DNA of 37,073 nt from a virus (Duplodnaviria; Heunggongvirae; Uroviricota; Caudoviricetes). This document shows, piece by piece, positions 2,086 through 35,641 of this stretch; the first letter of the stretch is position 1; every line of letters starts with the position of its first letter. The notes under the pieces were generated by a model. It had not been told where the DNA came from. It ran no database searches and was given only the letters and a program-made list of their open reading frames with translations. The translations under genes were made by a program, and so were the position numbers. The stretch is taken from positions 1-37,073 of the IMG/VR virus record IMGVR_UViG_2778261421_000003, one strand, 5' to 3'.

Positions 2086-3195
2086 TCACGCTGTTTCTGC
2101 TATCCATTCCGGGATTTTTGCCTCAAGCTCAAGCTGCGTGGTAAAGCCGCTGTTATCAATAGTGTGCTCGGCTTTTGCAATGATCCAGTCCTGATTATCA
2201 ATCTCGCTTTTAAATCCTGTTACCGTACCATGCATTTCGGGGTAGAGTTCTGCACGTCCACGCGCCAGCGTGATGGAGAATGATGCGGCTCCGCGTTGTA
2301 GCTGCTGCCACTTTGCCGCCGCTGCGCGTCTTGCTGCCTGCTCGTTCTGATAGGTCTTGCGTAACACAAACACATTGCCTTCCGCGCCTTCCATATAATC
2401 ACCTTCACGGCTGCTGCTTTTCTCCTTTTTGGGTTTTGGCGGTTTGCGGCGTTTCACGCTGACTTTTTTCTTTTTCCCGTAATTAAGATCAAGCCAGTAA
2501 GCGCGTACCCCCGTATACGCTTCGCGGTCAGCAATGCGGAACTGATGGCGATCGCCACTGCTGCGCGTGATGGCGAACGAGGGCAACGGCTGGCCCTGTG
2601 CGTTCACGCCACCGCCTGGCATGATGAATAACAGATTACCGCTTTTTACCGTAGTGATTGCGCCCAGCATTTCTGCCATGCGCGTAAGGAAGGACATGTC
2701 GCTTTCTTCGGTCTGGTCAGCGTGGTCGATTTCAATATCCATCAGCATTTCGCTGATTTGTGGTTTCAGACCGTACCGATGAGCGATGGCGGATACCACG
2801 CGCTCAACGGTCACATCATGCCAGGACACCTCACGTTTAACGTTAAATTCATCCCGAAAATCTGCGCTTCTGGCTGAAACCGTCAGCCTGTCCGGCGGTC
2901 CTTCGTGAGCGATTTCATCAACAATGTAAGTGCCTTTTTCTGTCAGCGGTTCTCCTTTCCAGCCAATGAGAACCGTCAGGCGCGCGCCCCGTGGCGGTAG
3001 CAGCAACTGACCATCCGCATCATCCAGCGTGATGGTGAGCTGGTCCGCCTCAAATCCCCGGTTGTCGGTCAGTGACAGGCTCATCAGGCACTCTGCCACG
3101 CCTGACAGCGTTTTACCCTCCGCGAGAATATCAAAATCCGGCATTTTCACGGGGTCTGTGCCCTGACTGAGCAATTGCATGGTGGTGTCGGTCAT
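2086..3195 (-). CDS. D: P2 gpD-like tail protein
   Basis: The listed ORF runs to 3327, but the likely start is the ATG at 3193-3195 (MTDTTMQLLSQG), preceded by GGAGGGAG. Size of about 369 aa and position next to ogr match P2 D. Confidence 0.8.
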   Translation of the reverse strand: MTDTTMQLLSQGTDPVKMPDFDILAEGKTLSGVAECLMSLSLTDNRGFEADQLTITLDDADGQLLLPPRGARLTVLIGWKGEPLTEKGTYIVDEIAHEGPPDRLTVSARSADFRDEFNVKREVSWHDVTVERVVSAIAHRYGLKPQISEMLMDIEIDHADQTEESDMSFLTRMAEMLGAITTVKSGNLLFIMPGGGVNAQGQPLPSFAITRSSGDRHQFRIADREAYTGVRAYWLDLNYGKKKKVSVKRRKPPKPKKEKSSSREGDYMEGAEGNVFVLRKTYQNEQAARRAAAAKWQQLQRGAASFSITLARGRAELYPEMHGTVTGFKSEIDNQDWIIAKAEHTIDNSGFTTQLELEAKIPEWIAETA

Positions 3196-5104: not shown

Positions 5105-5479
5105 ATGAAAGATATCGATACTGAAACCCGGAATAACACCGTAGCGGATGATGTGACGGCAGGTGAGGATATGGCTGTCGAACGTGGTGTAAAACTTTCC
5201 CGGCCAATTGAGCGTGGTGGCGAAAAAATCACATATGTGGAGATCACCGGGGCTATTGAGCAGGCGGGATCCCTGCGTGGTCTGTCGCTGTCTGATGTGC
5301 TGAATCTGAAAGCGGATACCATGTTCACGCTGTTGCCTCGCGTGACCTCGCCACGACTGGATGAAGTGATGATTAAAAAAATGTCGTCACGCGATTTTAT
5401 TCAGTTGTGCGCTGTGGCTGTAAATTTTATGAGCGAGCCAGACTCTGGCGCGAAGAGCGTGCAGGAGACGGCAGCGTAA
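5105..5479 (+). CDS. E: Tail assembly chaperone gpE
   Basis: 124-aa ORF between the tube and tape-measure genes, the position of P2 gene E. Confidence 0.7.
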   Translation: MKDIDTETRNNTVADDVTAGEDMAVERGVKLSRPIERGGEKITYVEITGAIEQAGSLRGLSLSDVLNLKADTMFTLLPRVTSPRLDEVMIKKMSSRDFIQLCAVAVNFMSEPDSGAKSVQETAA

Positions 5480-5643
5480 TCACCCTGGTGTGCTTTGAGC
5501 ACATCGAAGATCTGGTGGCGGATATTGCCGCCATTTTTAACTGGTCGCCCGCCGAAATCTTCATGATGACGCCCGGCGAAGTGGTTAGCTGGCGCGAGCG
5601 GGCGGCACTTCGCAGCGGGAATGCAGACAATGAAGACTCTTGA
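5105..5643 (+). CDS. Tail assembly chaperone E+E' made by a programmed -1 frameshift
   Basis: The -1 frame is open from 5377 to 5643 and overlaps the end of E. The heptamer A_AAT_TTT at 5422-5428 fits the X_XXY_YYZ slippery pattern in the E frame. P2 is known to make E+E' this way. Confidence 0.45.
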
Positions 5644-8437
5644 TATCCGGGTCGCTTTCAGCGCCGTTGACAGGCTGACCCGGCCTGCCGAAAACGCCCG
5701 CCGCCTGATGGGGCAGTTTGGTGACTCCATCCAGCGAACGCAGGGGGCGATCAAAAATCTCGAGCGTCAGGCGCGTTCATTTGAGCGCGCCCGTGACGCT
5801 GTCAGTAAAGCGGATGCGGGCATCGTGAAAGCACGACGCCAGCTTAACGCCCTTAATCAGTTACAACGCACGGGTACAGTGCTCAGCGAAAAACAACAAA
5901 AGCTGATGCAGCAGTTAAGCACCCGGCTTGAACGCCTGAATGAATCGCGCACACGGGAAATTCAGAAAATGCGGGAACTTGGCGGAGAGCTGAAACGCCA
6001 CGGCATTTCCCTGACAGGCAGCGATAACACCATCCAGCAGGCCATCAGACGCACCGAACAGTACAACAACCAGCTTGAACGCGAACGGCAGGCGCTTGCG
6101 CGTGTAACGCGGGCGCGTGAGCGGTATTCGCGCGCGCAGGAAACCGCGGGAAAACTGAAAACAGGTGGTGCGCTGACAATTGGTGCGGCAGCGGCTGGCG
6201 GCTATGCTGCCGGGCGTTTTTTGCAGCCTGCGATCGGGTTCGGGAAAGAGATGTCCCGCGTTCAGGCACTGACGCGAATCGACAAAAACAGCCCGCAGTT
6301 TAAGGCGCTGCGTGAGCAGGCGTTAAAACTTGGCTCTGAAACACAGTTTACTGCGAGTGATGCCGCCAGTGGACAGAGCTTTCTGGCAATGGCTGGTTTT
6401 ACTCCGCAGGCCATTCAGGCCGCATTGCCCGGTGTTCTTAATATGGCGCTGGCAGGTGGCGTCGAACTCGGCGAGACGGCGGATATAGGCTCCAATATCC
6501 TCACACAGTTCAACCTGACAGCCGATCAAATGGACCGGGTTGGCGATACGCTGACAGCGGCATTCACCCGGACCAATACTGATTTACGCGCGCTGGGCGA
6601 AACCATGAAGTATACCGGTCCGGTTGCCGCAAAACTTGGTATCAGTCTTGAAGAAGCGGCAGCCATGGCCGGGATGCTTGCCAATAATGGTCTTCGCGGA
6701 AGCGATGCTGGTACGGCCATGCGCGCAAGTCTGTCCCGCCTTGCATCACCGCCAAAAGCTGCGGCTGATGCACTGAAAGAGCTGGGGGTGTCAGTTGCTG
6801 ACGCCAGAGGCAAAATGCGCCCGATGGAGGATGTGCTGCTTGATCTCTATAAGGCGACACAAAAATACGGACAGGTGGACCAGGTCTCCTTCTTCAAGGA
6901 CATCGCCGGAGAAGAGGCGTTCGTTGGTTTGCAGACGCTTGTTGCGGCGGCTGGTTCAGGAGAGCTGCAAAAACTGACCAGAGAATTGCAGGGGGCAAGG
7001 GGAGAGTCCGATCGCGTTGCAAAAGTAATGGCCGATAATCTTGATGGGGACCTGAAAAATCTCGACAGCGCATGGGAAGGTCTTCGTATTCGCATCAGTG
7101 ATCTGGTTGACGGTCCGCTGCGTTCTGTCACGCAGTGGCTCACGCGGGTGCTTGAAAAAGTCACCTCGCTGGCGCAGGCCCATCCGGTACTGACGCGCCA
7201 GCTACTGATAGCAGGCGGTGCGTTGCTGGCAATGACTGCAACGATTGGCTCGTTGTCGCTGGTTATTGGGGTGCTTTACGGGAAGCTGGCCACCCTGCGT
7301 CTTGGTTTTGACATTCTTACCCGGTCAATGAATGTCGTCAGGGTGTTGCCTGCGCTGTGGGGAATGGTGACGGGTTCCGTTTCTTTGCTGGGAGGCGCTA
7401 TCGGGGCGCTGTTCAGTCCGGTCGGATTGATTGCTGCTGCGTTTGTGGCTGCGGCGGTTCTCATCTGGAAATACTGGGAACCCATTAAGGCGTTTTATGC
7501 CGGGGTGTTCAACGGGATTATGGAAAGGCTGAACCCGTTGCGCGAAACCTTTGAACGGTTTGGTCCTGTTTTTGACGCAATCGGAAGCGGGATCAGCCAG
7601 GTGTTTAACTGGTTTAAATCGCTGCTGTCACCGATGGAATCCAGCAAGGAAACGCTGGATAAATGTACCAGTGCTGGCGAGATATTCGGTAACGTTCTTG
7701 GCGGTGCGTTACAACTTGTTCTGACGCCTGCAAAAATGTTGCTGGATACGCTGGCGTGGATACTTGAAAAACTTGGCGTCCTTCCGGATGAAGCGGAAAG
7801 GGCGCGCAAGAAAATCGAAGACGCACAGCGTGCGGCCATTCTTCAGGACAAGGTTGCCTTACTTCAGGGGGACCTGGCGAAAATCAATCCGCCGAAGCCT
7901 GTGGAAAATGGCAATGGCACCGGAGGTGATAAACCCAAAGACAACAAACCGCTCACAGACAGCAATACCGGGACGCTGCGCAGACTCAGCAAAATTGCTG
8001 ATAACACAGGTAAGCTGGTTGATGAGACGAAAAAACGCATTGGCCCCGGCGATATTGTCTTTAAGAACCTGCCCCGCGCACTTGCTGTTCGTGGGGAGTG
8101 GCAGGAGCGGAAGATTGCGCAGGTCAGTAAGCCTGCCCCCGCAATTAATATCACACCCGTGGTTCCGGCTCCGCTGCCTCCGGCGCTGGTCCCTGTTGTT
8201 GCGGCCAGCTCCCGCCCGGTGGCGGAGGCCATACGATCGCCAGTGGCATCAGTTCCTGCAACTTCCCGTAACCGGGAGCCTGTTGCCTCCGGATTTGGCG
8301 GTGAAATTCATGTTCATCTGCATAACATTGTTACACAGAATCCCCGCGAACTGGCGAAACTGGTCGGTGAAATGGTTAGGGCAGAAATGGAACGGCGCGC
8401 CCGTGCCGGGCGTGGCAGTTTTTACGATAAAGATTGA
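5621..8437 (+). CDS. T: Tail tape measure protein (gpT)
   Basis: 938 aa with a coiled-coil-rich N-terminal half, Gly/Ala-rich hydrophobic segments and central transmembrane-like stretches. Sits between E/E' and U. Confidence 0.85.
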   Translation: MQTMKTLDIRVAFSAVDRLTRPAENARRLMGQFGDSIQRTQGAIKNLERQARSFERARDAVSKADAGIVKARRQLNALNQLQRTGTVLSEKQQKLMQQLSTRLERLNESRTREIQKMRELGGELKRHGISLTGSDNTIQQAIRRTEQYNNQLERERQALARVTRARERYSRAQETAGKLKTGGALTIGAAAAGGYAAGRFLQPAIGFGKEMSRVQALTRIDKNSPQFKALREQALKLGSETQFTASDAASGQSFLAMAGFTPQAIQAALPGVLNMALAGGVELGETADIGSNILTQFNLTADQMDRVGDTLTAAFTRTNTDLRALGETMKYTGPVAAKLGISLEEAAAMAGMLANNGLRGSDAGTAMRASLSRLASPPKAAADALKELGVSVADARGKMRPMEDVLLDLYKATQKYGQVDQVSFFKDIAGEEAFVGLQTLVAAAGSGELQKLTRELQGARGESDRVAKVMADNLDGDLKNLDSAWEGLRIRISDLVDGPLRSVTQWLTRVLEKVTSLAQAHPVLTRQLLIAGGALLAMTATIGSLSLVIGVLYGKLATLRLGFDILTRSMNVVRVLPALWGMVTGSVSLLGGAIGALFSPVGLIAAAFVAAAVLIWKYWEPIKAFYAGVFNGIMERLNPLRETFERFGPVFDAIGSGISQVFNWFKSLLSPMESSKETLDKCTSAGEIFGNVLGGALQLVLTPAKMLLDTLAWILEKLGVLPDEAERARKKIEDAQRAAILQDKVALLQGDLAKINPPKPVENGNGTGGDKPKDNKPLTDSNTGTLRRLSKIADNTGKLVDETKKRIGPGDIVFKNLPRALAVRGEWQERKIAQVSKPAPAINITPVVPAPLPPALVPVVAASSRPVAEAIRSPVASVPATSRNREPVASGFGGEIHVHLHNIVTQNPRELAKLVGEMVRAEMERRARAGRGSFYDKD

Positions 8438-28314: not shown

Positions 28315-31137
28315 TCATATATCGCTGCGCGTTTTTTGCTCATTTACGGGATTTGTGAGTCCCGTTTCTGTCTGTTTTTTGTTTCCACTGGTCAGGCCAC
28401 CCCGCAGCAGGTCTGCTTTGCGGCTGGCGCGTTCAGTGGTTTCACTGATTCTCTGTGCGTGCTCTGCGTCGCGGATGGCGCGCAGCATGTCAGAAAGCAC
28501 GGTAACGGGTGTTTTCATGGTGTTCTGGTCCTGCTGAAGTGTGGATGCCAGGCGTGCGGCGGCTTCAGGGTCTGATGCCCCCAGCTGTGCCAGATAGCTG
28601 GCGACCGGGTTATGGCGGATCTCCGTGCTGCTTACGCCATGATTACGGCTCAGGCGCTGCCAGAGCTGCGTGATTCGGCTGTCCAGGCGGGTATCCGGTT
28701 TGCGTACAATTTCAAATCCCTGCGGTGCAATGATGCTGCCGTCAACGTACAGACTGCCGCCCCGTAACAGGTGCTGCATCTGTTGTTCACCGATATGCAG
28801 GCCGAGAGATTCAGCAGACTCCCGCCATTCTTTAGCGAGTAATTCGTGGTTATCAGGCAAAGGCCGCTGCTGTTTGCGGCTCTGTGTCCAGCTCTGCGCT
28901 TCATCACTGCTGTTTTTTGCCTGTTTGTCACGAAGCGAACGCATCAGCGCCCGGCGTTCGTGCCGTTTCAGTGAGCGCATCCATTCGTTCACTTCAACGC
29001 CGTCAGGGAGCTGCGGCCACGGTGCTGGCCGTTCTTCCGGCTGTTCTGTCCCGTTGTTGTCCGTTTCCTGTACACGGGGACAGTTATTGCCACGAGTCCA
29101 AGGGGCGGCATGGCCGCCCTGAAGGTCAAAACCATTTTCGCGGGCGTTGTCTTCTGGTTCTGGTTTACGTCTTACCAACTTCCAGTTATCCGGATGCGTG
29201 CACACACGGGAGGATTCCCCGATGAGTGGTGACCAGATCCCGTAAATCTGTACGCTCTGTTCGCCGTAATCGTTCAGCTCATCTGCGAGGTCGTAGGCGG
29301 TGCGAATCAGGTAGTCCTTGCGTGGAACAAGCACGCCACCCTGTTTTTCAATGTAGGAGGCAAAACACCCGGCATCAGCGGCAGCGAGTACCGCATCCAT
29401 TGCATCATCCTTCAGCCGTTGCGGGCCTTCCGGGTTGCGTGCCATCTGGCTGGCAAGGCGGCGGAGTTCACGCCATACCTGACGGGAGGGGATGCCAAAG
29501 AACTGGAACTGGCGGACCCGATGAAGACGCGCCCAGCCAATGGCGCGCTCCACGCTCTCGGCCATTGATTTTCCGGTTTCGTGGTCAACGCGTGGCTTGC
29601 CCGTTTTCGGGTCGATGCCATCCACGGCGCGGCTGTCCAGGTTCTTTCCGATGTAGGTCGCGATATAGCTGGTTGGTGTGCCTTTTGAGCCGTCGACATA
29701 CTCCGCCTTAAAGCGCGGAGTAATATCATTGCCCAGCTCGTGGCGGTCTTCCTGAATGGCAATATCGCGGGTGATGGCCACGATGCTGTCGATTTCTTCC
29801 GGATGAGCAAAGACCATCATATGCCAGTGCACGGTGCCGTCATGGTGAGGCTCCACCGTGCGGATGCCATACCAGCGAAGACCGTCGCGGTTCAGTTTTT
29901 TGCGGACCGCCGCAAAAAACGTGTTAACCAGGTAATCGCTGGAGTCGCGCATGGTGGCCCCGTTCCATTTGGGATTCGGATGACCGTTCTCTGTTGTGGC
30001 GTGGTATTTTGACGGGCAGGTGACAGTCAGAAACACCGCTTTGTCGCCACGGGCTTCGGCCAGAAGTTCCAGCCCCTTCATGGTGGCCATCATTTCTGCC
30101 TTACGGTGAACCGGGTTACTTACTCCCGCGTAATACACTGTCTCGAGATCAATCGTGAACCCGTCTTCGTTTTCCAGCATGAAACTTTTCAGGAAATCGC
30201 GTGTTTTCTCGCGCTGTGCGCGAAACTCGCTTAACGCGTCCTGGCTCAGATAGGGTGATGTTTTTCTGGAAACCAGACAGGCGGCGCGGAGTTGTTCTTC
30301 TCTCCACTCGCAACGTAACAGCCACAGTTTGCGTTTCCACCATTCCGCACAGGTCAGGCGAAGGACTGCGCCCGGCAGCAGCTCCGTGTCCGGTTCGTTC
30401 CTCCGGTCTTTATCTGTTGTCAGTGCGTCATAATGTGGAGGCATGATGTGCAGGTGTAACGCCATGCGGGCCAGCATCTGATACGCCTTCAGCGTTACAT
30501 CCATGGTCAGCTCGCCATCTCTGGCACCAAAGCCATCACAGAGTTTTTCGAAGGTGCTGCTGAACATCGCCGCCGTCATGGTGGCCAGCGACTGTATCTG
30601 GTGTTTGTTGAGCTGCGGCAGGTAAAGCAAATCGTCCAGGCGTTCGCGTCCGGCAAGGGAGCGATAACCCGGTGTCAGCCAGTGTCCGTCAGTGCGATCC
30701 AGACGTTCGAATATTTTGCGCAGGGTTCCGCGTGCATAGCGTTCCGCCTGCCAGCTCTTTTTGCCTTTCCGGCGATCGGCTTCCTGTTTTTTGCGCAGGA
30801 AGGAGAGGTGGCGAATAAGCGGATCGCGCAGATAGGACGGCAGCAGGCGCAGCGAGGCCATGGCTTCATCCACCGCGCCACGTGCCTGTTTTCTGGCTTC
30901 TCTGGCCAGTGTGATGGTTTTGTCCTGTTTTTCCTGTGCGTCCAGGCTTTTATTAATCAGGTTGCCCAGCGGCGTGGCGGAGAACGCCGCATCAGCCATT
31001 TCCTGGCGGCGCTCGTTCTCTGCCCGGTAGGCATCCAGCCAGGAGGAAAGCTCGGATTCAGGAGCGGGGATTCCCGTTCCTTCACGACCCACTGCGTGGC
31101 GCGGTTGTTGCCAGTCCCTGATGTACTCTGCCGTCAT
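28315..31137 (-). CDS. A: Replication initiation endonuclease gpA (rolling-circle initiator)
   Basis: Motifs VTCPSKYHA and HWHMMVF are typical of P2/186 A-family proteins. The 940-aa ORF is longer than P2 A (761 aa), so the true start may be internal. Confidence 0.8.
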   Translation of the reverse strand: MTAEYIRDWQQPRHAVGREGTGIPAPESELSSWLDAYRAENERRQEMADAAFSATPLGNLINKSLDAQEKQDKTITLAREARKQARGAVDEAMASLRLLPSYLRDPLIRHLSFLRKKQEADRRKGKKSWQAERYARGTLRKIFERLDRTDGHWLTPGYRSLAGRERLDDLLYLPQLNKHQIQSLATMTAAMFSSTFEKLCDGFGARDGELTMDVTLKAYQMLARMALHLHIMPPHYDALTTDKDRRNEPDTELLPGAVLRLTCAEWWKRKLWLLRCEWREEQLRAACLVSRKTSPYLSQDALSEFRAQREKTRDFLKSFMLENEDGFTIDLETVYYAGVSNPVHRKAEMMATMKGLELLAEARGDKAVFLTVTCPSKYHATTENGHPNPKWNGATMRDSSDYLVNTFFAAVRKKLNRDGLRWYGIRTVEPHHDGTVHWHMMVFAHPEEIDSIVAITRDIAIQEDRHELGNDITPRFKAEYVDGSKGTPTSYIATYIGKNLDSRAVDGIDPKTGKPRVDHETGKSMAESVERAIGWARLHRVRQFQFFGIPSRQVWRELRRLASQMARNPEGPQRLKDDAMDAVLAAADAGCFASYIEKQGGVLVPRKDYLIRTAYDLADELNDYGEQSVQIYGIWSPLIGESSRVCTHPDNWKLVRRKPEPEDNARENGFDLQGGHAAPWTRGNNCPRVQETDNNGTEQPEERPAPWPQLPDGVEVNEWMRSLKRHERRALMRSLRDKQAKNSSDEAQSWTQSRKQQRPLPDNHELLAKEWRESAESLGLHIGEQQMQHLLRGGSLYVDGSIIAPQGFEIVRKPDTRLDSRITQLWQRLSRNHGVSSTEIRHNPVASYLAQLGASDPEAAARLASTLQQDQNTMKTPVTVLSDMLRAIRDAEHAQRISETTERASRKADLLRGGLTSGNKKQTETGLTNPVNEQKTRSDI

Positions 31138-31143
31138 AGTGAT

Positions 31144-31509
31144 TTACTTCGTCATGCCATTCAGGGTGTCGCGGCAGACTGTAGCCAGCCGCTGAATTTC
31201 CAGCACGGTGTCTTCTGTGTCGGCATGGCGATGTGTGATGCGGATGCTGTCGGCAATCACATCGACGATTGCAGAGGATGGGCGCTGGTAAATGCCAATA
31301 ACGGACGGGGTGCCACCTTCAATGCGGTAAAGCCTGTAATTTTCCTCATGGCTGTCAATCATGTAGCGACCATCAATAACAATCTTTCCGTCAGCGAGCT
31401 GCGGTACAGGCAGGGATTTCAGGTACATGTCATAACGATCACGCACGCGAGCGGCAAGATCACGTTCTGTGTTGAGCAGGTATTCAAGAAAGTCGTTGGC
31501 GAGAATCAT
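31144..31509 (-). CDS. Hypothetical early protein upstream of A
   Basis: 121-aa ORF ending 7 nt before the A start, in the position of the P2 orf80-83 cluster. No motif recognised. Confidence 0.45.
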   Translation of the reverse strand: MILANDFLEYLLNTERDLAARVRDRYDMYLKSLPVPQLADGKIVIDGRYMIDSHEENYRLYRIEGGTPSVIGIYQRPSSAIVDVIADSIRITHRHADTEDTVLEIQRLATVCRDTLNGMTK

Positions 31510-31581
31510 TGCGGCAATCCTCTTGCTACAGATGTGCGAAGGCCTCCCGCCGCAAGGTGCAGGAAAGGCCTGGAACAGGAA

Positions 31582-31812
31582 TTAATGGAGTTTGTTTTGC
31601 TGCTGGATGAGCTGCTGAAGCTCGCGCAGATCATCCGCCAGATAGCTGAAAACAGAGGCGGAATAAATGTTTGATAGTGCGTGGCTGCGCTCATGCAGCA
31701 TATTGATGTGCATGATTTGCGCGACGCGTGATGCGCGGAAAAGTCTGCGGTTGATTTCAGTCTGGATGTGACGACGCTCCGCGATAGCGCGGTGCTGTTT
31801 GCGGTTTGCCAT
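31582..31812 (-). CDS. Hypothetical small basic early protein
   Basis: 76-aa Arg/His-rich ORF co-oriented with the early operon. No cysteines, so not the DksA/TraR-type zinc finger. Confidence 0.35.
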   Translation of the reverse strand: MANRKQHRAIAERRHIQTEINRRLFRASRVAQIMHINMLHERSHALSNIYSASVFSYLADDLRELQQLIQQQNKLH

Positions 31813-31991
31813 GATGTGGCCTCTCTGTTAGTTAGTTTTGAAAACTCACCATCCAGAGGTTCCAAGCTCGGGGTGGTGAGACGTACAGGGTTGGAACTAC
31901 CGGCTAACAGAGGACCCGGCCCAGCTGATGCTGGCCCTGTACGCCCCACCATAATTCTGACGCGAAAAAGACGTGGCGATACGGCACGCAC

Positions 31992-32011
31992 AAAAAAACC
32001 GCTGGCGCGGT
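31992..32011 (-). terminator. Candidate rho-independent terminator on the minus strand
   Basis: Short GC stem ACCGC/GCGGT (31998-32011); the minus-strand transcript would be followed by seven U (complement of the A-run at 31992-31998). The stem is only 5 bp. Confidence 0.3.
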
Positions 32012-32179
32012 TGTGCGCTCTGTTAGTCTGCGGGGTTCCAATCCCGGCACCCGTTTTATGAGGTGCAGCGGAAATGTAACCTGACTGATTGCGGCATGGC
32101 AAGCGGTTTTTTTGTGAGAACGGCATACTAAAAAATCCTGATACTGCTCCGGCCAGCGGTTTTCACTGGCCGGGTTTAA

Positions 32180-33010
32180 TTACTTCACCGGAACAAACGG
32201 AACAGCGGTGTTACTGGTCATGTATTGCGGTAGCGTGCCGTTCCATTTGTTAATCGCTTCCAGCTCCATAACGCCGGGATTCTGGCGCAGAGCTTCACCG
32301 CGTAAACGAATGGCGTCGGCTTCAGCCTGGGCTTTTGTGCGAATGGCATCGGCTTGTCCGGCAGCTTCTGCGCGCAGCATGTTGGCTTCAGCTTCGCGTT
32401 GCTTGACTTCCTGTTCACGTTGCAGGGTTTTCTGGTTTGCCGTGACTTTGGCATTAATGCTGTCGATAACGGTTGGCGGGTATTCCGGCTTACCCACATA
32501 AGAGAGGCTCATTACCTGAATGCCGATAGGTGTCATTTCTGCCTGAATGTCTTTAAGTGCTGAATCCAGCAGTTCAGACTTGCCACCGTCGATAAATTTA
32601 TCGGTGGTCATTTTGCTGGCCAGTCGGTTGAGTGCGTCGGCGATCTTCTGGCGCAGGTCAGTGTCGGTAATGTCATCCACGCCTTTGCGGTAGGTCTGAA
32701 ACACTGTAGTAACTTTGGATGGATCAACCTTGTAGGCCACACCGATGTGATAGCCGATGGTTGTGCCGTCACTCATCTGAAAGCTGAACGGCTCATCGTA
32801 GGTCTTCATTTGTTTGAAGGTCGGGAAGATGTAAACCTCGGTATTCCAGCCAGTCCAGTAGCGGCCAACGCCAACCACTTCGCCAACGCCTTTGTCGTCG
32901 CCCAGCTTGTTGACTTTGATGCCCACATTACCTGGCTCAACGCGATCGCAGCCAACCAGCAGGATGGCGGCAAAAAGCGGGAGAATCTGAAAGAGTTTGA
33001 ATTTCTTCAT
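32180..33010 (-). CDS. SPFH/band-7 (stomatin/prohibitin-like) domain lipoprotein
   Basis: 276 aa with lipobox LLVGCD, a central SPFH-like region and a C-terminal Ala/Glu/Arg-rich coiled coil (QREQEVKQREAEANMLRAEAAGQADAIRTKAQAEADAIRLRGEAL). Confidence 0.65.
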   Translation of the reverse strand: MKKFKLFQILPLFAAILLVGCDRVEPGNVGIKVNKLGDDKGVGEVVGVGRYWTGWNTEVYIFPTFKQMKTYDEPFSFQMSDGTTIGYHIGVAYKVDPSKVTTVFQTYRKGVDDITDTDLRQKIADALNRLASKMTTDKFIDGGKSELLDSALKDIQAEMTPIGIQVMSLSYVGKPEYPPTVIDSINAKVTANQKTLQREQEVKQREAEANMLRAEAAGQADAIRTKAQAEADAIRLRGEALRQNPGVMELEAINKWNGTLPQYMTSNTAVPFVPVK

Positions 33011-33210
33011 TGTTTAATTTCCTTGATGTACTTACTGAAAAGGCGAACAACGCCTGCCGGGTACAGCATGGCAATGAAAATGCCCAGCAATACCAGGAAA
33101 GAGCTGTCTGATGAAATCATTCGGGGGAGTACCCCTACATACAGAATGAGAGAGACGAGGACGCATACTAGCGCCCATGCATATGCACGAAACCATGTCT
33201 TGTTGTTCAT
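33007..33210 (-). CDS. Small two-helix membrane protein coupled to the SPFH gene
   Basis: Start chosen at MNNKTWFRAYAWALVCVLVSLILYVGVL...; two hydrophobic helices; stop overlaps the SPFH ATG (ATGA). The upstream extension in the ORF track is rejected. Confidence 0.45.
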   Translation of the reverse strand: MNNKTWFRAYAWALVCVLVSLILYVGVLPRMISSDSSFLVLLGIFIAMLYPAGVVRLFSKYIKEIKQ

Positions 33211-33220
33211 GTTGCGGCCC

Positions 33221-33517
33221 TTACTGGTTAAGGAAAAAATCGAAAACCTTGTCAATGCGTTGCAGCAGCTCTTGCTGTATTGCTTCCGGCGTTTCCGGTT
33301 CGCCTGGCGCCTCCAACGTCGCGCAGAAATCAGCGATTTCATGATGGAGTGTCAGGCGAATGGCAGGGGCCGTGGTTCTGGCGTGCTCCAACTCATCCAG
33401 CAGTGCCAACACCACTGACGGTTGTAAGCTCACGCGAGATGGTAGTGATTCATGGGGGGGTATTCTTTGCACGGCAGTCGCCAGTTCGCGTAGTTCCTGG
33501 TGGTTGATGATGCTCAT
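33221..33517 (-). CDS. Hypothetical acidic early protein
   Basis: 98-aa ORF in a run of tightly packed, co-oriented early ORFs. Confidence 0.4.
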   Translation of the reverse strand: MSIINHQELRELATAVQRIPPHESLPSRVSLQPSVVLALLDELEHARTTAPAIRLTLHHEIADFCATLEAPGEPETPEAIQQELLQRIDKVFDFFLNQ

Positions 33518-33765
33518 GCTCTGGCTTCCTTCAGTAACTGGTTAAACATATTGGTAAGTGGATTGCCGCACCCGAACGGCATCGGGTTTACCTGGTAAGA
33601 GAAGCGACCACCTGTTTTGCGCTCTTTTCTTATGACTGAACCGCTACGCCAGAGTCGGCGTAACTCCGCATTAATAGCTGTGGTTGGGGTATTCAGTGCT
33701 GCGGCGATTTCTCCACCGCTACACCCCGGATTGGCGGCGATATAGTCCAGAATGGTCATCTGCAT
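33514..33765 (-). CDS. Putative winged-helix DNA-binding early protein
   Basis: 83 aa; TILDYIAANPGCSGGEIAAALNTPTTAINAELRRL looks like a wHTH. Start overlaps the neighbouring stop. Confidence 0.4.
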   Translation of the reverse strand: MQMTILDYIAANPGCSGGEIAAALNTPTTAINAELRRLWRSGSVIRKERKTGGRFSYQVNPMPFGCGNPLTNMFNQLLKEARA

Positions 33766-35362: not shown

Positions 35363-35641
35363 TTATTTTGTCATCTGCACGTATTTTTCTGTGCTCCTGA
35401 TTGTTTTCAGGAAAAGAGCGAAGAGATTTACTGTGCGTCTTGAGTTCTTTTCATCCTGGTTGATGGGAATTGAACCTCTGTCAGCCTGTCTTTTCACTGT
35501 GTTAACAGCTTGGTTGGTACGCTTTGCGTAATCTTTCAGGCTTTCTTCAAGTACTGGTAACCCATGCTCATCGCGGTAGGGATAGAACGCTGCTAAACGC
35601 TCAAAGTCTGCCTGTTCGTGTGTGTTCAGGACTTTTGCCAT
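35363..35641 (-). CDS. cox: Cox/Apl-like excisionase and early repressor
   Basis: 92 aa (P2 Cox is 91 aa), first gene of the early operon and divergent from C. YAKRTNQAVNTVKRQADRGSIPI resembles the Cox HTH region as I recall it. Confidence 0.55.
   Translation of the reverse strand: MAKVLNTHEQADFERLAAFYPYRDEHGLPVLEESLKDYAKRTNQAVNTVKRQADRGSIPINQDEKNSRRTVNLFALFLKTIRSTEKYVQMTK

Follow-up and report, generated by a model that had tools for sequence, protein, structure and literature searches.

The window analysed here, a stretch of 37,073 nucleotides (nt) at positions 1 to 37,073 of the virus record IMGVR_UViG_2778261421_000003, is a P88-like Escherichia coli prophage (Xuanwuvirus, Peduoviridae, P2-like). 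Between cox and the replication gene A it carries two adjoining minus-strand genes, one for a lipoprotein of 276 amino acids (aa) with an SPFH/Band-7 domain and one for a membrane protein of 67 aa. We propose that this region is a mobile two-gene accessory cassette for a self-contained inner-membrane module, one that would condition or stabilise the inner membrane in lytic development, and we give this reading a probability of about one half. In this reading the pair is a dispensable fitness module; it is neither a core replication function nor a recognised defence system. Both genes are already annotated (gp11/gp12 of P88; 'SPFH domain-containing protein' in RefSeq) and belong to established PHROGs.

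If the proposal is right, infection or induction would switch on production of the module, and the quiescent lysogen would not make it. The lipoprotein, held at the outer leaflet of the inner membrane, would oligomerise into a ring or cage. This ring or cage would fence off a patch of the inner membrane, together with the partner and possibly a host client, and the module would condition or stabilise the membrane while the phage grows. The missing promoter of its own, the presence of the pair in virulent phages and its occurrence in contexts without phage genes argue against a defence function expressed in the lysogen, and favour a periplasm-facing scaffold that acts in lytic growth.

The SPFH lipoprotein

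The first-pass annotation of the window had described a 276-aa lipoprotein with an SPFH-like core and a long Ala/Glu/Arg-rich coiled coil, translationally coupled to a 67-aa two-helix membrane protein in the early region of the phage. All of these elements were confirmed. In a profile search, residues 23-209 of the larger protein match the Pfam family Band_7 (PF01145) with E=7.6e-31 (107.9 bits, the cut-off being 23.6), covering positions 2-176 of the 176 in the profile. The protein also matches PHROG 200 'lipoprotein' (E=4.9e-112), and it is 100% identical to the RefSeq 'SPFH domain-containing protein' of several E. coli genomes.

The N-terminus reads MKKFKLFQILPLFAAILLVG-C21-D22, that is, a KK n-region and a hydrophobic h-region are followed by the lipobox ILLVG-C21. 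This agrees with the pattern [LVI][ASTVI][GAS]-C and with the signal of a bacterial lipoprotein (Lgt/Lsp substrate). Cys21 is invariant in a family alignment of 72 sequences, and a lipobox Cys is seen in most of 150 family representatives. These features strongly indicate that the protein is exported and lipid-modified at Cys21; with such an export, the SPFH part would face the periplasm, as it does in HflK/C. Judging from Asp at the +2 position, from the partner, which is an inner-membrane hairpin, and from the existence of single-gene forms with a preceding transmembrane (TM) hairpin (see below), the lipoprotein most likely stays at the inner membrane, on its periplasmic side.

A monomer model was built with AlphaFold2 (AF2) on a 72-sequence alignment of diverse homologues; its predicted local distance difference test score (pLDDT) is 91.8 and its predicted template modelling score (pTM) 0.74. 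The model consists of a signal-peptide helix, an alpha/beta core (residues 21-176), a helix of residues 179-243, a short helix and an extended C-terminal tail. According to DSSP, the proposed coiled coil is one single uninterrupted helix, which aligns to residues 180-306 of HflK; going by the model, it corresponds to the wall that coiled coils form in SPFH cages. Besides Cys21, the residues G49, G163, W256 and G258 are invariant across the family alignment and P261 is nearly so. By analogy with the cages of HflK/C and prohibitin, the C-terminal region, in which the last three of these residues lie, probably contributes a cap or closure element of the oligomer.

A Foldseek search against the PDB gave full-length matches to HflC/HflK (7vhq, E=4e-14), prohibitin, erlin1/2 and stomatin, with E-values from 4e-14 to 1e-13, and further full-length matches to flotillin, QmcA (E=2e-8) and the vault shoulder. 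HflK/C, prohibitin, erlin, stomatin, flotillin and QmcA each had a Foldseek probability of 1.00. Among chains of known structure, HflK is the one closest in sequence (E=7e-4). The model thus points strongly to the complete architecture of the cage-forming SPFH scaffolds, namely SPFH core, wall helix and C-terminal closure motif. From the conserved wall helix and the motif W-x-G-x-x-P we infer that the protein would assemble into a ring or cage.

In the records of phiP27, of Stx phages and of Klebsiella phages, the protein bears the label 'serine protease'. We rejected this label, since Pfam finds no protease domain; it is probably inherited from the name of COG0330, 'membrane protease subunit'.

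The partner protein

For the 67-aa protein there is a match to PHROG 1130, 'membrane protein', with E=1.6e-20, a family of the PHROG category 'moron, auxiliary metabolic gene and host takeover'. No significant family was found for it in Pfam or NCBIfam, no holin family in Pfam or PHROGs, and no match to NfeD (PF01957) at E<=0.1. Because the NfeD profile does not match and a protein of 67 aa has no room for an OB-fold domain, the partner is not an NfeD protein. The ATG that we use is the start given in the P88 annotation ('membrane protein'), and the open frame extends to position 33342.

In an alignment of 28 partners we see two hydrophobic helices with a short loop, a concentration of K and R in the C-tail and a conserved core P-x-L-x-S...V..G. 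The turn motif P-x-(L/M)-(I/V)-S-(A/S)-x-(S/D/T), located between both helices, is common to all partners. From the basic C-tail, that is, from a positive-inside charge pattern, an N-in/C-in topology is predicted, with few residues in the periplasm. The short turn P-x-L-I-S, which would lie on the periplasmic side, is very probably the only conserved feature of the partner.

The stop codon of the partner gene and the start codon of the SPFH gene overlap in an ATGA, and an AAGGAA Shine-Dalgarno sequence lies inside the 3' end of the partner gene, which bears out the suggested translational coupling. An ATGA overlap is also present in phiP27 and in a Stx2 phage, and Tribble, an N4-like phage, has a start/stop overlap. 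Taken together with the occurrence of the pair elsewhere, these sequence features strongly indicate that the 67-aa protein is the dedicated transmembrane partner of the SPFH scaffold. We found no description of this partner-scaffold relationship in the searchable literature.

An accessory cassette in the early operon

The region of the SPFH and partner genes is 93.6% identical at the nucleotide level between the window and phage P88, and several complete E. coli genomes contain 100%-identical copies of the window region. C and int are plus-strand genes and occupy the right end; cox and gene A flank the pair, which is encoded on the minus strand, so that the early-region location claimed earlier holds. 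Only 11 nt separate the stop codon of the Ead-like gene upstream from the ATG of the partner gene. A crude sigma-70 consensus scan found no promoter upstream of the pair; the sole promoter-like site (32102..32073) is that of the IsrK/C4 RNA module downstream. A cassette without a promoter inside a repressor-controlled early operon would be transcribed together with this operon on infection or induction and be silent in the quiescent lysogen, as far as can be read from the layout of the genes.

The limits of the cassette follow from a three-way alignment of the window, P88 and P884B11. The cassette is present in the first two and cleanly absent in P884B11, in which the Ead-like gene abuts the IsrK module. 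By megablast, 569R5, 705R2, Entero_P88(23), Shae_phiSM, PhiR44_2, 520873 and 503458 match in two pieces, over the flanks only. Among 5,426 complete E. coli genomes, the P88-type flanking backbone is present at >=80% coverage in 874. The junction between backbone and cassette was found in 145 genomes, and 145 have the full pair, so the cassette occupies this junction in 145 of the 874 backbone genomes (~17%). Any match to the query was found in 576 genomes, with 227 of the places being on plasmids.

Since the cassette is present at the junction in only ~17% of the backbones, the pair is not a core early function. The variable presence in related prophages that the first-pass annotation had suggested looking for is therefore real (P884B11, 569R5, 705R2, Shae_phiSM and others lack the cassette). 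With the SPFH domain confirmed by profile search and the pair accessory rather than part of a conserved core, neither of the two findings that it had named as speaking against its idea was obtained.

A hairpin with a 10-bp stem follows the SPFH stop codon in the window and in P88 and is absent in P884B11. We considered it as an intrinsic terminator and rejected this as non-canonical, the U-run beginning 12 nt past the stem.

Occurrence in other phages

Homologues were found by tblastn in 412 phage records. Among these are temperate phages and, on the virulent side, N4-like, rV5-like, Felix-O1-like, Bruynoghevirus, phiCbK-like, crAss-like, Lak and jumbo phages. Giant viruses, too, commonly encode SPFH folds. 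Taken by itself, the SPFH gene is ~92% identical in nucleotides in Stx2-converting phages and phiP27, where it lies near int/xis, and ~76% identical in SSU5-like phage-plasmids of ~108 kb.

A small ORF (open reading frame) with two TM helices stands directly upstream of the SPFH gene in P88, phiP27, a Stx2 phage, the SSU5-like Cyrano (annotated there as 'membrane protein'), pMT1-like contigs, a P1 variant and the N4-like Tribble, and in these phages the start and stop of the two genes overlap or abut. In some of them the partner is present and unannotated, namely in phiP27 (L003, 3304..3492, minus strand), in Stx2 phage 14040 (L005, 3792..3980, minus strand) and in the P1 variant MH445380 (L171, about 2250..2490, plus strand). 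Tribble, which infects Klebsiella, is virulent, and so is the rV5-like Ro1, which has the partner upstream with one ORF intervening. In virulent phages the pair sits among early or nucleotide-metabolism genes and not in lysis cassettes.

The cassette itself is mosaic. Compared with phiP27, the mature SPFH protein of the window is 97.3% identical in amino acids, the signal peptide ~65% and the partner 23%, and the block of nucleotide homology common to the window and the Stx/phiP27 phages ends at the lipobox. The difference between the 97.3% of the mature SPFH part and the 23% of the partner therefore places a mosaic breakpoint at the lipobox.

In Shigella flexneri and E. coli ECMA0423 (L087/L088, about 5214-5994), an insertion of ~780 bp with an ORF on the opposite strand splits the partner from the SPFH gene; this copy is otherwise of the Stx/phiP27 type. 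The same pair, with 78% aa identity, occurs on a 108-kb contig of Yersinia pestis NCTC5923 (L090), the size of which suggests a pMT1/SSU5-like replicon. Similar copies are found on contigs of ~92-109 kb from Kluyvera and Lelliottia and on a contig of ~58 kb from Buttiauxella.

Bacterial loci and single-gene forms

The family is not limited to phages. A search of cluster representatives gave 2,891 at E<1e-3 and 221 at E<1e-30, and most of them are 270-300 aa long and have their lipobox Cys near position 17-24. When a single genome of each species was scanned by means of a 12-sequence alignment, 80 loci were obtained, which belong to Enterobacterales, Xenorhabdus, Sutterella, many Dyella, Cupriavidus, Leptospira, Bacteroidota, Saprospirales, Dependentiae and others. 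The partner motif was seen 165-200 nt before the codon of the lipobox Cys in at least 52 of the 78 evaluable loci, from Enterobacterales to Leptospira and Bacteroidota. The true number is higher, since the hydrophobicity filter discarded some of the partners in Dyella and Leptospira. The Cytophagales/Binataceae subgroup, the members of which have <=33% identity, lacks the partner.

The neighbourhoods of the bacterial loci vary. In Dyella, synteny between species extends over both flanks of the locus, and in the conserved chromosomal neighbourhood of Dyella/Rhodanobacteraceae (L101, L104-L127) a divergent pair of BlaI/BlaR1-like regulators (Penicillinase_R / Peptidase_M56) adjoins, with a gene for a hemerythrin-domain protein downstream. 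In Leptospira the neighbours are succinate dehydrogenase and ArsR genes, in Xenorhabdus MFS and LysR genes, and the Sutterella locus has a prophage-like appearance (DUF2303). We found no genomic linkage to ftsH or to any protease in the loci that we inspected.

About 20 of the top 150 representatives combine an N-terminal hairpin with the same motif, a basic linker, a lipobox signal and the SPFH domain in one ORF of 320-390 aa (P0124, P0131, P0135, P0136, P0138, P0141, P0149, P0152, P0160, P0169-P0172, P0194, P0200, P0206, P0216 and P0244; L128 and L133). These forms may be true fusions, or they may be in-frame neighbours merged by the gene callers. With either origin they support a functional linkage of the two parts and a location of the SPFH domain outside of the cytoplasm.

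Comparison with characterised SPFH systems

Known SPFH scaffolds are understood to form cages around membrane clients, such as HflK/C with FtsH and QmcA with NfeD; prohibitin, stomatin and flotillin are further examples. The pair described here is distinct from the characterised systems in that it has a lipid anchor, faces the periplasm, and consists of a single scaffold gene with a minimal hairpin partner. The family adds a lipid-anchored and periplasm-facing version, in which the two-helix partner is not a protease and not NfeD either.

Of the proteins with solved structures, HflK/HflC match best in sequence; they are the SPFH3 proteins of E. coli which form a cage around FtsH (PDB 7vhp/7vhq/7wi3/9cz2). 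Both share the order of SPFH core, long helix and C-terminal closure, and the SPFH domain of the phage protein is predicted to be periplasmic, as is that of HflK/C. On the other hand, the identity is only 17-18%, HflK and HflC are a heteropair of adjacent paralogues while the phage scaffold is a single gene, they are anchored by an N-terminal TM helix instead of a lipobox lipid, and they have no partner like the 67-aa hairpin protein. In NCBIfam, the matches to TIGR01932 (hflC; 24.8 bits, E=8e-6, cut-off 134.4) and TIGR01933 (hflK; 22.7 bits, E=6e-5, cut-off 159.4) are weak, and given these cut-offs we rejected a membership in HflK/HflC.

The SPFH-NfeD operons (QmcA-YbbJ, PDB 8z5g; YqiK-YqiJ; stomatin PH1511-PH1510) are likewise composed of two genes, with a co-translated gene for a small membrane protein upstream. 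However, NfeD partners have an OB-fold domain that the phage partner lacks, and QmcA and YqiK face the cytoplasm and are anchored by a TM hairpin, whereas the phage protein is exported and has a lipid anchor. The alternative suggestion of the first-pass annotation, a membrane module of host type comparable to SPFH/NfeD pairs, is closer to the evidence than a defence function is, except that the partner is not NfeD.

The cages of prohibitin PHB1/PHB2 and erlin1/2 (PDB 8rrh, 9o9z, 9vvg) are the top full-length structural matches, with E about 1e-13, and they are membrane-anchored rings that face a non-cytosolic compartment, as we propose for the phage protein. They differ from it in being eukaryotic hetero-oligomers with TM anchors and without a small hairpin partner, and the identity to the phage protein is 14-18%.

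The pair itself belongs directly to PHROG 200 and PHROG 1130, as adjacent co-oriented genes. Other members are P88 gp12/gp11, phiP27 L05, the 'HflC/HflK family inner membrane lipoprotein' of BcepF1 and gp200 of Vi01-like phages, from which we see no structural difference. The classification of SPFH proteins into the subfamilies SPFH1-12 (Hinderhofer 2009) mentions neither lipoproteins nor phages, and has minor subfamilies without a reported NfeD partner; since the scheme covers neither, we dropped the attempt to place the phage family in it.

Possible functions of the pair

The first-pass annotation had favoured a role of the prophage-encoded pair in superinfection exclusion or abortive infection, and this was not borne out. 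Such a defence, which we regard as unlikely, would mean that the lysogen expresses the pair to block superinfecting phages at the inner membrane, either by exclusion of DNA entry or by abortive infection; in the latter version the hairpin would be a membrane-disrupting effector that is restrained by the SPFH scaffold. Many exclusion proteins are indeed small inner-membrane proteins or lipoproteins, such as T4 Imm/Sp, P22 SieA, T5 Llp and Ltp (PMC3952083), and an exclusion like that of T4 imm/sp, expressed early in lytic growth, is compatible with the data. An accessory mobile cassette that is found in a minority of related prophages and has passed from one temperate element to another (P2-like, lambdoid, P1-like and SSU5-like) would also suit a defence function, as would the PHROG category of the partner. 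However, the defence systems of PADLOC-DB v2 include no match for the SPFH protein, and the only match of the partner (PDC-M18B; 14.2 bits over 20 residues, E=0.008 against one library) was judged to be due to chance. Furthermore, the pair has no promoter of its own and lies inside a repressed early operon, homologous pairs occur in strictly virulent phages and in conserved chromosomal contexts that are not islands, and our literature searches found no link between SPFH proteins and anti-phage activity. The pair could also be a mimic of HflK/C, although we consider this rather improbable. Here a periplasmic SPFH ring would capture FtsH or another inner-membrane protease or complex by the periplasmic domain of the latter, and would alter the turnover of membrane and regulatory proteins of phage or host in infection. 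The closest solved relatives by sequence and structure are HflK/HflC and prohibitin, which face the periplasm or the intermembrane space and enclose FtsH or m-AAA proteases (PMC13086221). The weak hits to the hflC and hflK models point in the same direction, and FtsH, being universal, would fit the very broad host range of the family. On the other hand, these hits score far below the equivalog cut-offs, the scaffold is a single gene in which a lipid anchor takes the place of the TM helix by which the N-terminus of HflK contacts FtsH, no linkage to ftsH or a protease was seen in the inspected loci, and the resemblance may reflect the shared SPFH architecture only.

Two further explanations appear to us to be quite improbable. 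The hairpin could be similar to a class II holin or to an antiholin, with the SPFH scaffold sequestering the hairpin or the phage holin and so delaying permeabilisation. Class II holins and pinholins are in general small proteins with two TM helices, N-in/C-in topology and a basic C-tail, and the partner, with its small size and highly basic C-tail, resembles them in topology only. This role in the timing of lysis is very doubtful, as Pfam and PHROGs contain no holin family for the partner, the early operon is far from the lysis genes and the copies in virulent phages stand outside of lysis cassettes, and chromosomal loci with no phage genes around them have conserved this pair as well. The least probable explanation is that of a lysogenic-conversion lipoprotein of the surface or of vesicles, acting on the animal host as an agonist of Toll-like receptor 2 (TLR2) or as a virulence factor. 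It is prompted by PM0222 of Pasteurella multocida, a prophage 'HflK/C-like' SPFH protein of 25-35 kDa that was reported to occur in outer-membrane vesicles, to signal through TLR1/2 and to contribute to virulence in mice (PMC9872710). The window protein is of matching size, and it is carried by E. coli prophages including Stx phages. The likeness of PM0222 to the phage family is nevertheless drawn from its description, signalling through TLR1/2 can be set off by any triacylated lipoprotein, members of the family are widespread among environmental bacteria and virulent phages that have no animal host, and the conserved inner-membrane partner and the single-gene forms argue for the inner membrane.

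While the proposal of an inner-membrane module for lytic growth agrees best with these observations, several points weigh against it. Oligomerisation, the choice between inner and outer membrane, the contact between partner and scaffold and the timing of expression are all inferred. Asp22 is followed by Arg23 at +3, and in relatives the +2 residue is E, S, T, A or Y, so that the sequence gives no guarantee of retention in the inner membrane; the Pasteurella prophage protein of similar size, likened to the family by its description only, was reported in outer-membrane vesicles. More distant SPFH lipoproteins, those of the Pseudomonas phage DL54, the Erwinia phage M7 and Cytophagales, have no partner. 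The identities of 97.3% and 23% mean that the interface between scaffold and partner would have to be very generic, or else that the two proteins act more independently. A weak internal promoter that is active in lysogens may have escaped so crude a promoter scan. Our searches of the literature (SPFH together with prophage, anti-phage, exclusion and holin/lysis) gave no functional assignment, and the P88 paper, the PhageMaP essentiality preprint and a survey of SPFH proteins in P. aeruginosa hold no functional data on the pair. A phage paper of 2026 calls the reason for the presence of SPFH lipoproteins in phage genomes unclear.

Potentially, the pair could be a generic device for membrane takeover by phages, in which a periplasmic SPFH nanocage sequesters a universal inner-membrane machine (FtsH, a DNA-entry complex or a complex dependent on the proton motive force); we think that the chances of this are low. 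If it were true, the membrane of the infected cell would be protected, for example against premature depolarisation, membrane-targeting effectors of abortive infection or the entry of DNA from a secondary phage. It would also account for the recurrence of the pair in more than 400 genomes of virulent and temperate phages and for its retention by bacteria as a stress module.

For this prophage, the pair is an ordinary annotated accessory cassette of P88-like phages, which points to a membrane module that is widespread in phages and bacteria. Its client or its effect, if identified, would explain a very common accessory gene of phages, and would also make available, as a bacterial model, an SPFH cage plus obligate partner that is small and easy to express.

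Features of the region and the adjacent antisense RNA module

The coordinates of the cassette and of its surroundings are collected in Table 1.

Table 1. Coordinates in the window of the SPFH/partner cassette, its parts and the neighbouring features.
Feature	Position	Strand	Basis or remark
SPFH/Band-7 lipoprotein gene, 276 aa	32180..33010	minus	Pfam, PHROG, AF2, Foldseek
Signal peptide and lipobox, residues 1-21 (L-V-G-C21, then Asp22)	32948..33010	minus	sequence and family conservation
SPFH domain proper, residues 23-209	32384..32944	minus	Pfam envelope; AF2 beta/alpha core 21-176
Ala/Glu/Arg/Gln-rich long helix, residues 179-243	32282..32476	minus	DSSP on AF2 model
C-terminal region, residues 244-276, motif W256-x-G258-x-x-P261	32183..32281	minus	family alignment
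Partner gene, 67-aa membrane hairpin protein (TM1, short loop, TM2, basic C-tail)	33007..33210	minus	PHROG 1130
Partner loop motif P29-R-M-I-S33 (in the family P-x-hydrophobic-hydrophobic-S/T)	33112..33126	minus	
ATGA overlap of partner stop and SPFH start	33007..33010	minus	4 nt; translational coupling
Accessory cassette (partner, SPFH gene, hairpin)	32106..33220	minus	~1.1 kb; three-way alignment of window, P88 and P884B11
Hairpin with 10-bp stem after the SPFH stop	32149..32173	minus	-21.1 kcal/mol, z=-4.5 (RNA fold)
cox	35363..35641	minus	first in transcription order, then several small early genes
Winged-helix protein	33514..33765	minus	upstream of the Ead-like gene
Ead/Ea22-like protein	33221..33517	minus	directly upstream of the partner gene
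Transcription order after the Ead-like gene: partner, SPFH lipoprotein, hairpin, IsrK and C4 RNAs, 76-aa 'derepression protein', DUF5405-like gene, gene A		minus	
Promoter-like site	32102..32073	minus	consensus scan
IsrK	31992-32066	minus	Rfam
C4	31869-31956	minus	Rfam
Target element a1	32041..32035	minus	repeats
Target element b1	32026..32018	minus	repeats
Target element a2	31865..31859	minus	repeats
Target element b2	31831..31823	minus	repeats
Complementary element b'	31912..31904	minus	inside C4
Complementary element a'	31897..31891	minus	inside C4
76-aa 'derepression protein' ORF	31582..31812	minus	ribosome-binding site overlapped by b2
Replication gene A	28315..31137	minus	

Directly downstream of the cassette there is an antisense immunity module of the P1 immI type (31823-32102, minus strand). 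The a/b sequences and the a'/b' sequences change together among the window, P88 and P884B11, and this covariation suggests that they reflect heteroimmune specificities. An ORF of 206 aa (31506-32126, minus strand) overlies the IsrK and C4 RNA genes. Similar ORFs are called 'transcriptional regulator' in P884B11 and are given as an 'ash family protein' pseudogene by the Prokaryotic Genome Annotation Pipeline (PGAP); ORF calls over these RNA genes are probably spurious.

In P88-like relatives (L001, 180-1139; L172, 1084-2359), genes for ParM-type plasmid segregation and partition adjoin the replication gene on its left. Such genes beside gene A are unusual for an integrated P2-like prophage.

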